DNA from: an uncultured Pseudomonadota bacterium
Lineage (GTDB): Bacteria > Oederibacteriota > Muellerivitia > Muellerivitales > Muellerivitaceae
Reading direction: 5' to 3'
Assembly (NCBI GenBank): GCA_963770835.1
Contig: CAVYRH010000003.1
Span: forward strand, 32,001-96,000
Length of the DNA stretch: 64,000 nucleotides
How positions within the stretch are numbered: position 1 is the first letter of the stretch; each line of letters begins with the position of its first letter. Position numbers: made by a program. Positions 15,001-51,000 of the stretch are shown here, in pieces.

Positions 15001-18000
15001 TATGGCATCAAAGATCCCAAACCGAATCTGGGCCATGAATTAACATTTAAAAGTTCAATTGATGCGGTTGCGACCTATATCAGTCTCGAAATGAATGCTT
15101 GGGCTCAGTTTAACGAAAATAAGCAACCCGGAAAATGGTGGTAACGGATTTTTGATAGTTCATGGTTGTCCGCGACGGGGACCCTTCGTGAACAACGAAA
15201 ATAATGGATAATGGTATTCAGGCACTTTCAGCATAAAGATGGTTTACAAAATTTGGGGGGCAGACCACATGGACTTGCTTATTGATACTTACGGTACCAA
15301 GATCGGCGTAAATGGCGAGCGCATCGTCCTTTCTTTTCCGAAAGTTAAAGAGAAAAAAGAATACCCCATCCATAGACTGGAGAAAATAGTCATACTGCGG
15401 CCGGCCTCGCTCACGACTCACGCGGTTCAGCTCGCGATTGAGCACGATGTTGATATCGTCTATCTCGGTTCTTTTGGCAAGCCCATCGGAAGACTATTTT
15501 CAAGCGAACCAAAAGGGCTGGCGAGTCTTCGTAAAGCGCAACTGGAAGCGTCAACTTCGCTTGAGCGATCGTTCAAAATCGCGAAAGAATTAGTGCGGGG
15601 CAAATGCGCTAATCAGCTCGATCTACTCCGATATCTCGCGTACCGATATAAAAAGGATGTGGGGACCGAACTCTTACAAGCGCAGACCCTTTTTGATGTC
15701 TTGGACAATGTCCCGTGTTCGGAGAAAGGCAAGGAGCAACTCCTTGGTACGGAAGGATACATCGCGGACAAATATTTCAGCGGGTTAAAAAAATTCTATA
15801 GATTCCCGGGCCGAAAACCACAAGGCAGGGACCAGTTTAACAGCGTACTGAATTATGGTTAGGGCATCCTTTACAATGAAGTCGAACGGGCATGCCTTTA
15901 CGTCGGTCTTGATCCATATCTCGGCCTCTACCACAGTGAACGCTATGGTAAGCCTGCCCTCGTTCTCGATCTTGTCGAAGAATTCCGCGTACCAATCGTC
16001 GACTCGGTGCTTTTCCCGCTTTTCATAGAAAAGAAACTGAGCCAACGGAAATATTTTGAAAAAACCGCGGTTGGGCAATATCTGTTATCGCCTGAGGGAA
16101 AAAGCGTCGTGGTGGGGGCGATCATGAGGCGGTTGAATGAAACGACGGCATGGCGGGGGAAACAATATACTCTTAAGCAGATCATAGATAACCAGATTAG
16201 GGCGTTGGCACGTCACTTTGTCGAAAAGGAGGACAAGTACAACCCGTTTCGTGCGGAAAAACTTTTTTCGATATCATGAACAATTTCAATGCCATCACCC
16301 TAGTATCGTGGGAAACGCGCGACTGGCGGCATCGGGACAAGGCGGTTCTGTGGTGCAAGAATTATGGTCTCAAGCCGGTTTTCCGGAATATGTATATCGG
16401 AAAATTGTATTCAAAAGAACGGGAAAAACTCGAGAATAAATTCAAGGGGGCTTTCGCAAAGAAGACCGAAAAGTTTTTTATCAGTACGCTCTGTCGGTCG
16501 TGCTTTGAAGATTCGGTTTTCGGTGGTACGCTTAGTTCTAAGAAAGATGATGTCGACATTGAAACTGCGTTTGAACTTATCCAAATCACGCCGAATTCGG
16601 CGGAACGGTGAAAAACACCAATAATTGCAGGCTCCTGCACATGCCTGTCGCAAAAAGGATAGTGTGCAACTAAGAGACTACCGAGATCGAAGGACGACTC
16701 TTAAAATTTTTGCGGGCAACTTACTTATGTAACAGAATCAGTCCTTGCCAGGGCCTTTCGCAAGAAACGAGTCCCCCAAACCCTGATTTTGAGAAATTTT
16801 CTTAAAAGAACTTAAATGAAAACCAGAGAGAATATACAATTACAACCATTTTTAAAATGGGCTGGCGGTAAACGTTGGCTGGTTTCTAAATACTCAAAAA
16901 TATTTTTAAAACCGTTTAATACTTATTTTGAACCATTCCTGGGTAGTGGGGCGGTGTTTTTCCACTTAAAACCAAAAAAATCAGTTCTTTCAGATGTTAA
17001 TAAAGACTTAATCGATACGTTTCGTGCGATAAGGAATAATTGGAAAGGTGTTGTAAGTGAATTGAAGAAGCATAATTCGAAACATTCCACAAATTACTAT
17101 TACAAAATGAGAGATTGGAAGCCCAATTCCGCCAATAAAAAAGCTGCACTTTTTATTTATTTAAATCGCACTTGTTGGAATGCTTTGTATAGGGTTAATA
17201 AAGAGGGGAAGTTTAATGTCCCTATTGGAACGAAATTAAATGTTTTACTTGAAACGGATGATTTTGAAGCAGTTTCTAATGCCCTAAAAAATGTAACATT
17301 CAAAGACGGAGATTTTGAACATATTTTAGATACGGCAAAAAAAGGGGATTTCATTTACCTTGATCCGCCTTATACGGTTACACATTCAAATAACGGATTT
17401 ATTAAGTACAATAATCATATTTTCAAATGGGAAGATCAATGCCGACTAGCAAGTGTTTCAAAAGATTTGATAAACCGCGGCTGTGCAGTTGTTATAAGCA
17501 ATGCTTATCACAACAGTATCTTTGATTTATATAAAGGGTTTTACTATTTGGGTTTGAAACGCCACAGCCTTTTAGCCGCCGATCCAAGGAAAAGAGGAGA
17601 TTATAAAGAGTGCCTTTTTTCGTCTTTCCCAATCAAAATTTGACGGGAGTTTACAATGGCCGATGAAAATGTTTTTGGTGGATTCCTTTTACAAGAAAAA
17701 CCCCCAATTTATTTAGCTGCAATACCAGGAAAATGGTTGTTAAAACACACAACTCCTTCTTGGCGATTAGAAAATCCAGAAGAAGGTTTTCAAAGAGTTG
17801 TCCAAGAAAAAAGGGCTAGAGAAATAGCGACTGCTGTTTTAAATCAAAAACGAATATTTCCAAACGCAATTGTTTTAGCTACGGATATTCAAAATTTCGA
17901 GGCACGAAAAGGCGAGATAAGCATTGGAAATAGGATTAAATTTCTTGTTGTTGATGGGCAACATAGGTTGTGGGCTCAAAAATTTTCAGAATTTGAGGCT

Positions 18001-48000: not shown

Positions 48001-51000
48001 AGAATCCCCGCCGCGTAACCCGGCAGAATCCCCAGCACTCCGGTGGCAAAGACCAGCAGGCGGGGTTGATGGTTGGCCGAGGCGAGAAAAAGCCCTCCGC
48101 TGAAGCCCAGAAAAACCAAAAAGAAAAAGATACAGATGTGAAAGTCCCCATAGTTGGGTTTGAGACCATTTTGACCGGCGATACTATTCACCAAAATAAA
48201 CAGTATCCCGATGAAACCTAATATCGCCAGTGGCCACCCGATAATGGCATTCGGCCCCAAGGCCATGGGCAAACCCAAGGCTACCAGCGCCATACTTGCG
48301 GCGACCATGGCGGTCAGTCCCATGTTGTGGTTGAAGGAGGTGCCCTGGGGTTCGTTTTTCTTCGGGGAAAGCCGGGACCAGAGCAGCCCGGGAAAGAATA
48401 CGGCATGGAATTCCCAACTCAGGATACTCGGCGGAATAATGGGATTGGTGTTGCTCATTCTGGGCTCCTCTCAACGATGATAGGTGTTTTCAAGGGCATT
48501 TGGGCTGATTAATTTCTTTTCCAGTCCCACGTCCATTAAAAGGCTCTGGTAAACTTGTCCGCGACGGGGATCCGTCGTGGACAGAGCGAAAGCATAAAAT
48601 GAATTTGGGCATCGAATGATCGAATGTTGTCCAATCTCTGAGACGCTCGCACTTCGGCGAGCGGATCGGGCAGGGGACAGCTGAGTGTGGAAAAAGGTTA
48701 TGATTTGAAAAAAATATTGAAAATATTCATCTTGGGGTGGATAGGGTTAAATCCAGCAAAAGGGATTGCCCTGAGCGCTCAAGAAGTCCCGGTTCTCCGT
48801 TCATTCGGAAATGCCATTACGTTAACAGGCTTGGTGTTAAAAGAGAATAATGATTGGATTTTCAAATTAGACAAACCGGCGCTTGTCCCATGGCCAAGTA
48901 TTTTTCGGCGGGCACAGAATGCCAAGTTGAGGATCGAACGGACGAATTTAAAGTCGGACGTGTATGAAATAAATGATAAATGGTTGAATCAACATTTAGC
49001 CTTCAAATGCCAATTAAGCATCGAGCGAACGGCTACCGCGGTATCGGGGGTGGTCTGTGATCTGAAGGAATTGGTTGGAGAATCTTCCTTAAAAAAGATG
49101 TTCGCGGGCCTGACCACATATCCATTTAATGAAACTATTACCCTATCGGGAGTTTTGTCCTCTAAAACATTTTCCTCTTGGCGTCCAACCAATGGCCCTG
49201 CTACCGCCGCCCACGAAGAAAAAGTGAGGGTTCTCTATCTCGACGAACCCATCAATGTGGCTGCGAAAGAACCCCATGGACCAGCTTATGGAGTAACAAA
49301 GGTTCAATTTGATTCATCGATCTATTTCCCGACGGATAGATTTATGGACAAACATGTTTGGGTATCCGGGAAGTTATCTACCGCCGATGAGTGGTCCCAA
49401 TTCTTGCCTGTTTTGCTCGATGTAAAAGATCAAAATGAAATTTCGTTAACGAAGAAGGCTAAAAATTGGTGGTGGCCTTTTTGAATCGTCCGCGACGGGG
49501 GCCCGGATTGGACAATGAAAATTGCGCCGGAAATTGCCCAGTGGGGAAAGGTTGGTTTCAATGACCTATAAGGTAATGGTCGATGATAATTACGACTATA
49601 TGGACCCTGAAAAACGGTATACCCATGGCGAGTTCGAGGCATTGGAAGCGGCCATCGAAGCTTGCAAGAGGATCGTCAACGAGTGGCTGGAGTCCAGTTA
49701 TAAGGCCGGAATGAGCGCCGAGGAACTTTGCAAAAGCTACAAGGGTTTTGGATTGGACCCATGGGTTTTGGGTGCCGAAAAAAAAGTCTTTTCCGCGTGG
49801 GAATATGCCGAACAGCGTTGCGCTGAGATCTGCTCAAAAGGATGACTCCAAGAAGTGCCTGCCTCAAACAAAACATTTTGTTATGGATGGATTGTCCACG
49901 ACGGGGACCCATCGTGGACAGGTAACATGATGGCCATTCCACCGCCGGGATTAAACTATTCCCGGTGAGTAGCCACTCATAAGGAGGAATGACCATGAAA
50001 CAGATTAGCAAAAAAGGATTCCAAGGCAAGGAGGTATCCAAGCGGGACGCCGTGTTTGTGGGGCTCGATGTCCACAAACGAAGTATTTACGTAGCAATCA
50101 GGATCAATGGAAAGGAAACCGGAACCAAGTCTGTGCCCGCGGATTGGGAAGCTGTGGTGAAGGTTCTGGAGCCTTACCGAAAAGGGTTAAAAAAGGTCGT
50201 CTACGAGGCAGGACCTACTGGCTTTGGCTTGGCACGTCGCCTTCGGGAAGTGGGATACCCATTGGACGTCATCGCCCCGAACAAAACACCTCGTGTAGCT
50301 CAGTTGGAAACAAAATCCGACCGGTTGGACTGCCGCAAGCTGGCGGAGTACGCCGAAAAGGATCTCTTGCGGGCTGTGGCGATCCCAACCCTCCAGGAAG
50401 AAGCGGATCGGCAAGTGGTGCGTTTGAGAAACGCGATGGTGGAACAAAAACGCAAGGCCAAACAAAGGATCAAAAGCTTTTTCCTCCAATATGGATTCAA
50501 GGAACCTAGAGGGCTGGATTACTGGACCCACGAGGCCATCGGAGTTTTGCGGGATATGGAACTGCCGCCGGCCCTGAGATTCACGTTGGATAGCCTATTG
50601 GAAGATCTCTTTTACTTTGATAGGCAGCTTAAAGACGTGAACATACGTTTGCGGGTCATGATGAAGGACAAGGCCTACGAGAAAAAGGCTAAGATCCTCA
50701 GGTCCCACCCGGGAGTGGGTGAAGTAACGACCCTGCAAATGTTAACGGAGATTTACCAGCCGGAGCGCTTTCAAAACGCCAAACAGGTGGCGGCTTACGT
50801 GGGGTTGGCCCCAAGGATCAGGCAAAGCGGAGAAACTCGAAAGGAAGGCCATTTGCAGAAGGCCGGAAAAGGAACCTTGAGGGCTACCTTAGTTGAAGCT
50901 GCCTGGTCATGGATTCAAAAGGATACCCAGGCCAACCGCGTTTTCCGCCGGTTCGTCCGTAATACGGGGCATGTCAACAAAGCGATTGTGGCAATGGCTC

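Follow-up and report, generated by a model that had tools for sequence, protein, structure and literature searches.

Integrons stack gene-bearing DNA in tandem at one site beside the integrase gene, using a tyrosine recombinase that acts on attC sites. Casposases are Cas1-solo enzymes which are reported to insert the two separate ends of a long DNA at a specific site and duplicate the target, working without Cas2 and on the terminal repeats of their own element (PMC6977970). In CRISPR adaptation, two reports treat a fixed spacer length as built into Cas1-Cas2 (PMC7969031; PMC13034035). The second of these describes type II-A and type V-A systems in which a short leader-anchoring motif adjoins the first repeat, short processed prespacers are taken and a Cas2 aspartate is required for full-site integration, its loss in type V-A nearly abolishing that reaction (PMC13034035).

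Here we analyze a 64,000-nucleotide window of contig C3 from an uncultured bacterium, in which a cas1-cas2 pair is followed by 37-bp direct repeats that bound kilobase-scale inserts. The pair has two of the features that define a CRISPR adaptation module, the Cas1 catalytic residues and a Cas2-fold partner adjoining cas1, and the repeats are identical, of fixed length and placed behind a leader as in a CRISPR array. The regular short spacers of such an array (~25-50 bp) are missing, and neither the effector and processing genes searched for nor a PAM, as in CRISPR-Cas immunity, were found. A search of the literature outside subscription journals found no description of such a system.

Results

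All features of the locus lie on the forward strand. A 28-bp palindromic cassette site (11-6-11; 15167..15194) stands directly 5' of cas1 (15269..16279; 336 codons, alternative start 15239); the cas1 module is carried as one cassette of a distinct gene array bounded by such sites. Then come cas2 (16276..16611; 111 aa), a leader (16612..16633) whose last bases are a conserved GCT anchor, and the leader-proximal repeat 1 (16634..16670). The initial annotation had given the leader as 25 bp, which holds only if the cas2 stop codon is counted; the leader proper is 22 bp. It had also listed four near-identical cas1-cas2 copies in the genome. The number is right but not all are intact: the C15 and C16 copies are, a third is 5'-cut, and the full-length copy in the window has an in-frame TAG at 15860-15862 where the three other copies and four of four public runs have TAC. 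No promoter above chance was detected near cas1 or the leader, and RNA runs contained at most 17% of the words.

Cas1 matches its Pfam family with an E-value of 3e-68, and its nearest solved relatives are 4N06 and 7CR6. Residues E162, H222, D234 and E237, which we take to fill the catalytic Glu-His-Asp/Glu roles, are invariant in 55 members of its clade. The 111-aa gene, previously uncalled, is indeed a Cas2: it matches PADLOC Cas2b (E 1.9e-7), each of its eight Foldseek matches at E<=0.001 is a Cas2 or Cas2-like chain, and 20 of the 26 clade Cas2 members match PF09827 (Cas2), albeit weakly. It is also divergent. The YD motif present in 34/34 relatives is absent from all 26 clade sequences, and the linker before the last strand, predicted to be disordered, has 18-24 residues compared to 6 in relatives (12-18 extra). 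Clade Cas2 proteins are basic, carry an invariant Trp12 and lack the central Asp.

We searched for effectors in the genome that holds the window (G000) and in G012, G032 and G033. None of eight Cas families, including Cas3, Cas5, Cas7, RAMP, Cas6, Cas9 and Cas12f/TnpB, exceeded its cut-off; other Cas12 and the Cas13 subtypes lay outside this genome-wide search. For these eight families in G000, the earlier statement that no other cas gene was found is correct. Two weak PADLOC Cas10/Cas3 matches in neighboring genes cover an HD-like stretch only, and a sub-threshold Cas9 match in G012 extends over 59 of 1070 positions; we counted neither as an effector. A separate type I locus is present in another genome, G006.

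A whole-genome scan allowing up to 12 mismatches identified exactly 27 copies of the 37-bp repeat, 23 of them exact, two with one mismatch, two with five and none with 6-12, in agreement with the original census; a control scan with the reversed 37-mer pattern gave no matches across all 32 genomes. The 22 same-strand intervals measure 213-12,145 bp, the range reported before, with a median of 2,481 bp. The repeat matched no Rfam CRISPR family, the only Rfam matches being to a group II intron, and the viral contigs searched held neither the repeat nor a relative of the Cas1 clade. Ten copies fall in the window, nine of them within the span first annotated and the tenth, at 57971, outside it; the next, repeat 11, comes at C3:101992, past the end of the window.

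The inserts between these repeats carry whole and truncated genes. Insert 1 (16671..28720; 12,050 bp) encodes Dam-like methylase, DndB-like, SRAP and UmuC-like proteins along with unknown genes. A donor search returned only patches of 65-92% identity in 5 of 31 other genomes, and for part of the insert no near match was found in plasmids. Behind repeat 2 (28721..28757), insert 2 (28758..29838; 1,081 bp) is a copy of the module itself, as previously noted: a 5'-cut cas1, the complete cas2 (29481-29816) and another leader, with 100% identity to the C15 copy and followed by repeat 3 (29839..29875). Insert 3 (29876..32335; 2,460 bp) holds an RHS fragment and an IS200-type transposase. Repeat 4 (32336..32372) precedes insert 4 (32373..34890; 2,518 bp), with two complete genes for outer-membrane beta-barrels and an ORF extending into repeat 5 (34891..34927). 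The frame of the NHL-repeat gene in insert 5 (34928..37150; 2,223 bp), which also contains a TPR gene, likewise extends into repeat 6 (37151..37187), and insert 6 (37188..38985; 1,798 bp) has two ORFs plus a beta-propeller fragment running into repeat 7 (38986..39022). Insert 7 (39023..43249; 4,227 bp), with a DDE transposase in two frames, has 1,622 bp in common with insert 3. Insert 3 overlaps both insert 7 and an insert at C3:393393 at 99.6-99.9% identity with different ends, so the three inserts first described as sharing one source do so.

Following repeat 8 (43250..43286), insert 8 (43287..45788; 2,502 bp) begins within an IS3-type element (a 539-bp piece 100% identical to genomic copies; the IS3 pieces reported earlier among the inserts are confirmed), contains a PD-(D/E)XK nuclease gene and ends within a GmrSD-type gene. 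An ORF at 45381-46817 crosses repeat 9 (45789..45825) in frame, fusing a fragment of a GmrSD N-domain to one of a FecR domain. Interval 9 (45826..57970; 12,145 bp) may be composite because six 28-bp cassette sites (the first at 48556-48583) lie in it, along with IS110, IS3 and a copy of a group II intron. It ends at repeat 10 (57971..58007), after which a malectin-domain frame begins mid-domain.

Eight of the 32 genomes examined from the class show this geometry, and the cas1-cas2-repeat layout marks one Cas1 clade from FCPU426 and Patescibacteria. Of 30 clade loci, 28 have this layout and 29 have cas2 after cas1. The clade spans 56-100% identity and is monophyletic in a quick tree (SH-aLRT 99), its nearest sampled relatives being type I cas1-cas2-cas4 loci with arrays of 68-76-bp period. 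Repeat sequences are lineage-specific, and 25 of them align at 37 bp without gaps. GCT precedes 22/28 first repeats compared to 0/37 inner repeats, behind leaders of 2-38 bp. The median of 100 clade intervals is 1,450 bp. Five of 28 loci have a single repeat even though 7.8-9.6 kb of sequence is available downstream, and in one locus the second copy is inverted. In different genomes the module occupies unrelated sites, with a Xer-like upstream neighbor in three loci only and neither PolB nor any other common neighbor among 77 upstream proteins. Cassette sites number 85 in G000, where one precedes each of the three full cas1 copies, and G009 and G012 show the same arrangement.

These data bear on two ways in which the array could be misleading. 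An ordinary CRISPR array might have had its short spacers inflated later by IS, cassette or prophage insertions. Cassette sites do occur in 3 of the 22 intervals of G000, a caveat that was raised at the outset and is justified, and IS elements occur in several; two of the 100 clade intervals are no longer than 50 bp (30 and 38 bp), and one study reports phages that integrate into CRISPR repeats (10.1101/2020.10.09.333658). This explanation is nevertheless largely refuted and highly improbable, as 82 of the 100 intervals reach at least 500 bp, none of the 30 loci has a short-period array and, as described below, donor matches fill inserts from first base to last. Chimeric joins at the repeat in a long-read assembly are hardly credible: although frameshifts mar the assembly and at one cas1 base it disagrees with every run examined, the repeat is where contigs from four public runs end or branch (its depth in one of them being 79 versus 6 for cas1), one public run contains the insert downstream of the C16 module, and 28 independent assemblies show this layout.

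Donor copies reveal how inserts are bounded. Four entire inserts (379, 386, 559 and 885 bp) each correspond to one contiguous donor stretch joined precisely at both borders, with matching sequence from the first base after one repeat to the last base before the next. The 885-bp insert is present, inverted, in another genome, and the 7.5-kb C16 insert is closer to G023 (78-80% identity) than to the resident copy (70-74%), both as initially claimed. In a strict set, drawn from FCPU426 only and from ends at 116 repeats, 27 insert ends could be matched to a donor copy that is free of the repeat. No PAM or other outside motif flanks the 27 donor ends, a small sample. Five of 33 apparent donor ends in a looser set proved to be degenerate or mis-registered repeat copies and were discarded. 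Neither insert end is homologous to the repeat, and the two ends are mutually unrelated, forming no terminal inverted repeats. At the level of base composition, both ends carry one mirror-image bias: G is depleted at inward position 3 (7/116 right ends and 3/99 left ends, against a background of 22-24%), and T stands at inward position 5 in 48/116 right ends and 49/99 left ends. The bias is weaker in Patescibacteria, where position 3 is not significant and position 5 is T in 45/109.

The donors also speak to the idea of the 37-mer as a recombinase site or a miniature mobile element, one that would enter existing DNA or recombine with it. The 37-mer folds as a hairpin (z = -3.1), and FCPU426 repeats are dispersed over several contigs, some without cas genes nearby. 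Against this, 0 of 27 donors is continuous across the repeat into the other flank and none has a half-site, repeat sequences differ by lineage, and in five of five Patescibacteria-type genomes all repeats (4-10) form one same-strand array behind cas2. We found no empty-site allele joining both flanks of an inner repeat, and we regard this idea as very improbable.

Instead, Cas1-Cas2 probably acts as a site-specific integrase that has lost its length ruler, in a module for which no effector gene was found, inserting DNA at the leader-repeat junction and duplicating the 37-bp repeat each time; it likely takes inserts of 30 bp to >10 kb. The layout, the exact 37-bp repeats, the leader-side GCT, the contiguous, arbitrary-ended inserts without a PAM and the mirror end bias are evident from the genomic sequences themselves. 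Each of two Cas1 catalytic sites would engage a single frayed 3' end of a long DNA molecule, a casposase-like use of two ends that would not need terminal repeats. The ends would attack opposite borders of the repeat, which host repair would then fill. The altered Cas2 would still hold two Cas1 dimers on the repeat but would no longer impose a single 22-23-bp duplex between them. Any free DNA in the cell would serve as substrate, be it from IS elements, cassettes, the chromosome of the cell or those of other species, or the module itself. In FCPU426 the module moves as a cassette between 28-bp sites.

Some observations fit a stepwise route better, in which half-site integration joins one DNA end at a time and host replication or recombination completes the long insert. 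In type V-A, the Cas2 D7N mutant is reported to keep leader half-site integration and lose full-site integration (PMC13034035); the clade lacks that Asp, a point in favor of this route unless the clade compensates. Insert 2 and several 5'-cut cas2-leader-repeat seeds (36-235 bp) resemble one-ended rearrangements, and an inverted repeat pair at C3:400723/400869 counts on the same side. We nonetheless consider stepwise joining unlikely, given that both ends share one bias without repeat homology and that four inserts are single donor pieces, precise at both borders. The end of insert 2 coincides with a leader-repeat junction, and arrays contain mixtures of repeat variants; some intervals therefore belong to larger blocks that were captured, which speaks against the integrase reading. 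In its favor, the first insert differs among all six near-identical cas1-cas2-leader copies, found in three genomes. A metagenome scan yielded 8 stretches only, too few for the order of acquisition.

Discussion

The initial annotation had proposed a gene-capture integrase rather than immune memory, a proposal that is partly supported. An adaptation module that inserts kilobase DNA agrees with our reading, and that it is not immune memory is supported by the leader anchor, the repeat-free donors, the absence of a PAM, the tolerated self-derived inserts and the lack of any effector family found; the capture of useful genes as its purpose is so far a conjecture. Single-repeat loci, the few donor-matched ends, the intervals that hold cassette sites and the weaker bias in Patescibacteria are counterpoints to the integrase reading as a whole.

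What the inserts do for the cell is a separate matter. Of the 21 inserts of at least 600 bp, 7 have a long reading frame open at their 5' junction and 6 have one open at their 3' junction. Gene fragments are common among the inserts. The cas strand is the coding strand in 38/50 FCPU426 inserts versus 11/25 in Patescibacteria, but we rejected this bias as a sign of array-driven expression because contig C3 is itself 69-91% co-oriented throughout. Tentatively, and with somewhat less than an even chance of being right, we propose that a domesticated CRISPR integrase has become a general gene-capture machine: two small proteins would insert any DNA from 30 bp to >10 kb at one 37-bp site, without PAM or terminal repeats, and the cell would keep and use whole genes. 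In FCPU426, where the machine would itself be a cassette of a second array, captured DNA and landing pads would move between genera. The module could also be a selfish or decaying remnant whose inserts are neutral by-products, which is compatible with the integrase mechanism and which we hold to be a real possibility a little short of even. Genes are cut by the inserts, IS halves and self DNA are found among them, the strand bias equals that of the host contig and is missing in Patescibacteria, the module sits at unrelated sites across genomes, and some cas1 copies are broken or cut. Conversely, the Cas1 catalytic residues, altered Cas2, anchor and 37-bp length are conserved across a clade of 56-100% identity, and 45/50 site-free FCPU426 inserts contain a closed long frame.

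If correct, this would amount to a horizontal gene transfer route requiring neither homology nor a donor site. The clade keeps repeat length and drops spacer length, making the ruler testable through Cas2 part swaps, and it would be the reverse mirror of the casposase-to-CRISPR transition proposed in PMC6977970. At 336 + 111 aa, the pair is a compact candidate tool with which kilobase DNA might be inserted or recorded at a specific site.

Among known systems, the type I adaptation module (cas1-cas2-cas4, 37-bp repeats) shares the Cas1 catalytic residues, Cas2 fold, leader-proximal anchor and exact repeat duplication. Our module differs in lacking Cas4, Cas6, an effector and a PAM, in its leader of 2-38 bp, in inserts of 30 bp-14 kb rather than ~35 bp, and in a Cas2 without YD whose linker is 12-18 residues longer. 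Type II-A and V-A systems, as described in PMC13034035, have a similar short anchor by the first repeat, and a long host-factor leader seems unneeded, whereas clade Cas2 lacks their Asp and the inserts are long. With the casposon, the module would share a Cas1-family enzyme acting on two ends of long DNA at a specific site with target duplication (PMC6977970); in place of a Cas1 without Cas2, terminal inverted repeats and PolB, it has kept Cas2, its insert ends are arbitrary and its Cas1 groups with CRISPR Cas1. Like an integron, it stacks gene-bearing DNA at one site beside the enzyme gene, but there is no tyrosine integrase acting on attC sites of whole-gene cassettes: donors are siteless, genes are cut arbitrarily and an exact, duplicated repeat forms the boundary.

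An array of kilobase intervals

The studied genome contains 27 copies of the 37-bp repeat CCTGCACATGCCTGTCGCAAAAAGGATAGTGTGCAAC (23 exact, two with one mismatch and two with five), the counts given in the initial annotation, and a whole-genome scan found no further copies at 6-12 mismatches. Ten copies lie in the window, which spans 32001-96000 of contig C3, and bound intervals of 1,081-12,145 bp; genome-wide, the median length of the 22 same-strand intervals is 2,481 bp. Because contigs from four public runs end or branch at the repeat, and because its depth in one public run is 79 compared to 6 for cas1, a long-read artefact is ruled out as the source of this structure. 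Two repeats of the array at 383-401 kb of contig C3 are a variant typical of another genus. Three intervals contain 28-bp cassette sites, as first annotated. Insert 2 (from window 28758) ends at a second leader. Given these sites, the second leader, the variant repeats and scattered cas2-leader-repeat seeds, some intervals are composite. Inverted repeat pairs at C3:400723-400905 and L045:11345/12793 suggest occasional inversion or an array piece captured in reverse.

The module is real and clade-wide. Among 32 genomes of the class, the repeat is present in eight and a Cas1 at least 95% identical in five, spanning four genera; the next closest Cas1 proteins are 57-82% identical, and all taxon-named ones are from Patescibacteria. 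A genome scan retained 79 loci, 30 at 56-100% Cas1 identity and the remainder at no more than 38%. In 28 of these 30 clade loci, cas1 and a cas2-like ORF are accompanied by a 37-bp repeat, mostly 2-38 bp 3' of the cas2 stop; of the other two loci, one runs off the end of its contig and the other has a truncated cas1. Same-strand copies number two to nine in 14 of the 28; one locus has an inverted second copy and 13 have a single copy, with less than 1.2 kb of downstream sequence in eight of these and 7.8-9.6 kb in five (in one of the five, the next repeat is 26 kb off). Five Patescibacteria-type genomes carry all their copies (8, 10, 10, 6 and 4) in one same-strand array behind cas2. After three duplicates and one opposite-strand pair were dropped, 100 distinct intervals (22 from the studied genome, 43 from other FCPU426 and 35 others) had a median of 1,450 bp, with 82 of at least 500 bp and two of 50 bp or less, in a set that misses longer intervals owing to locus size.

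Copies of the module and their surroundings

Four near-identical cas1-cas2 copies had been annotated. There are indeed four cas1 matches, but only two are intact: one is 5'-cut (window 28758), and the full-length copy in the window carries a TAG at 15860-15862. Since the same codon is TAC in the three other copies and in all four public runs, the TAG reflects either a consensus error or a mutation private to this copy. The leader measures 22 bp rather than the 25 bp originally assigned.

The genome holds 85 of the 28-bp palindromic sites, and all three full cas1 copies lie directly behind one. These 11-6-11 palindromes flank co-oriented gene cassettes across window 5686-57000 (for example at 7416-7443, 11454-11481 and 48556-48583), and group II intron copies and IS110 begin immediately 3' of several. 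Upstream of cas1 in loci L024, L025, L030 and L041, we read by eye a TTGACA-type promoter and what resembles the 3' end of a tRNA, features that often precede the module. In L034, L038 and L044 a Xer-like recombinase gene is oriented divergently to the module, and a TGTCGCAAAA stretch similar to the repeat core is present in two of the three. Dispersed in relatives are 5'-cut cas2-leader pieces (22-235 bp) with the repeat (L100, L104, L106, L109, L138, L143, L148 and L150), possibly non-autonomous landing pads. In L100, leader and repeat lie 39 bp behind a 28-bp site, and the clade's cas1 was not found in that genome.

Cas1 and its CRISPR relatives

A quick tree built from 81 Cas1 rows separates the 28 clade members it includes from all other rows by a single branch (SH-aLRT 99). 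A short-period array is absent from all 30 clade loci and present in 28 other rows. The sampled relatives are type I systems, since neighbours in these 12 include Cas4, Csa1, Cas7/DevR, Cas3, Cas5 and Cas6 among the 31 of 59 listed ORFs scanned. The best solved-structure matches of Cas1 are 4N06 and 7CR6. At L049:134-1394, a cas1 that branches more deeply (38%) and is paired with a Trp-type Cas2 may be an early offshoot of the clade; a recognisable repeat was not seen in that locus.

Some inserts are contiguous pieces of donor DNA

GCT stands directly 5' of the first repeat in 22 of 28 loci and of 0 of 37 inner repeats, which indicates that only the 37 bp are copied, beside a short anchor. This anchor resembles the short leader anchor of types II-A and V-A (PMC13034035). 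At 116 FCPU426 repeats, 27 insert ends had a repeat-free copy elsewhere; none of the 27 donors ran on into the opposite flank, and no PAM was seen in the bases outside these ends. Four whole inserts each match a single contiguous donor stretch over their full length: 559 bp in genome G006 (donor on contig C17 of the studied genome, 100% identical), 379 bp in G005 (donor in G006), 386 bp in G032, matching its own ndk-like gene, and 885 bp at C3:399838-400722. The last, as previously reported, lies inverted and with other ends in another genome's array, 100% identical within a 971-bp insert of G012, from another genus (L115:1851-2821). The larger insert exceeds the nested piece by exactly 43 bases per end, which may be due to chance or to an excised insert having been trimmed symmetrically.

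Two further early claims also held. Three inserts of the studied genome share one source at 99.6-99.9% identity with different ends, and the 7.5-kb insert on contig C16 is 78-80% identical to genome G023 compared to 70-74% to the resident genes, which indicates uptake of another species' chromosomal DNA. Two IS3 pieces have 311 bp in common. The insert at C3:384203-385263 consists of 23 nt of cas1 and then 1,039 bp of IS3, which points to a probable donor in an IS3-interrupted cas1 copy that the assembly lacks.

Insert ends show the same bias on both sides, in 56 tests for each side after identical ends were merged. At position 3, counted inward from the junction, G occurs in 7 of 116 right ends (p 5e-7) and 3 of 99 left ends (p 1e-7), against a background of 22-24%; at position 5, T occurs in 48 of 116 (p 7e-4) and 49 of 99 (p 2e-6). 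Patescibacteria ends are biased only at position 5 (T in 45 of 109). Such a mirror image would be the trace expected of one enzyme acting twice, and A/T-rich positions 3-7 would fit a frayed end wedged open by Cas1, as described in PMC7969031.

Cas2 changes that may have removed a length ruler

The 111-aa protein has a Cas2 fold. For comparison, 48 outgroup loci yielded 34 Cas2 proteins. Relative to these, clade members lack the N-terminal YD motif (0 of 26, versus 34 of 34), retain Q-x-S in two cases (versus 34), have an invariant Trp and are more basic (+7 versus 0). From the CxxC helix to the last strand they span 18-24 residues in 26 of 26, compared to 6 in 32 of 32 outgroup proteins, and the stretch before that strand is predicted with pLDDT below 50. 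In E. faecalis this strand pairs with Cas1, according to PMC6977970. Because the missing Asp reportedly binds metal and contacts the prespacer (PMC13034035), its absence supports a changed donor-binding surface.

The same paper reports this Asp as necessary for full-site integration in type V-A, which favors a scheme in which Cas1-Cas2 joins one DNA end at a time and host repair or recombination completes the event; type I-E reportedly does not need it. We regard this one-ended scheme as rather unlikely. We consider it probable instead that Cas1-Cas2 integrates both ends of a long DNA, without a length ruler.

Function of the arrays

Profiles for Cas12f/TnpB, RAMP, Cas3 HD, Cas9, Cas4, Cas5, DevR/Cas7 and Cas6 gave no match above cut-off in the studied genome, G012 (99% complete), G032 (one 876-kb chromosome record) or G033, with controls matching in known genomes, that for Cas9 only below cut-off; for these eight families, the original statement that the genome has no other cas gene is borne out. 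Six of the eight were sought in G006, which carries Cas3 and Cas5 at a separate locus. Among 77 upstream proteins there was no Cas protein and none common to the whole clade, and 74 further long ORFs gave only two weak HD-type matches and one weak CARF-family match. One module is inserted between rplE and rpsN in a ribosomal operon (names assigned by reading translations). The 386-bp insert of G032 differs by 3 bases from its own intact ndk-like gene, and tolerance of such an insert would be unexpected in a targeting system.

The arrays had been proposed to be the work of a gene-capture integrase rather than immune memory. Immune memory is unlikely, given the self-derived insert, the lack of a PAM and the lack of an effector match among the eight families, but the strand bias of inserts lends capture no support. 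A closed long frame occurs in 45 of 50 site-free FCPU426 inserts, and coding lies on the cas strand in 38 of 50. We rejected this bias as a sign of capture because contig C3 is 69-91% co-oriented throughout and Patescibacteria inserts show none (11 of 25 on the cas strand). Adaptive gene capture is a possible function.

The array can create chimeric frames, since a 478-codon frame (window 45381-46817) runs through repeat 9 and joins fragments of a GmrSD N-domain and a FecR domain. Within insert 1, two 90%-identical elements of 59-82 bp (window 21526-21584 and 22387-22445) precede consecutive genes and are perhaps phage-like promoters or leaders.

Comparison with known systems

Such arrays were not found described in the literature searched, which left out most subscription journals. 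The module would work in the same manner as CRISPR adaptation, yet it departs from CRISPR-Cas in spacer length, PAM and effector, and it fails the tests for a casposon and for an integron.
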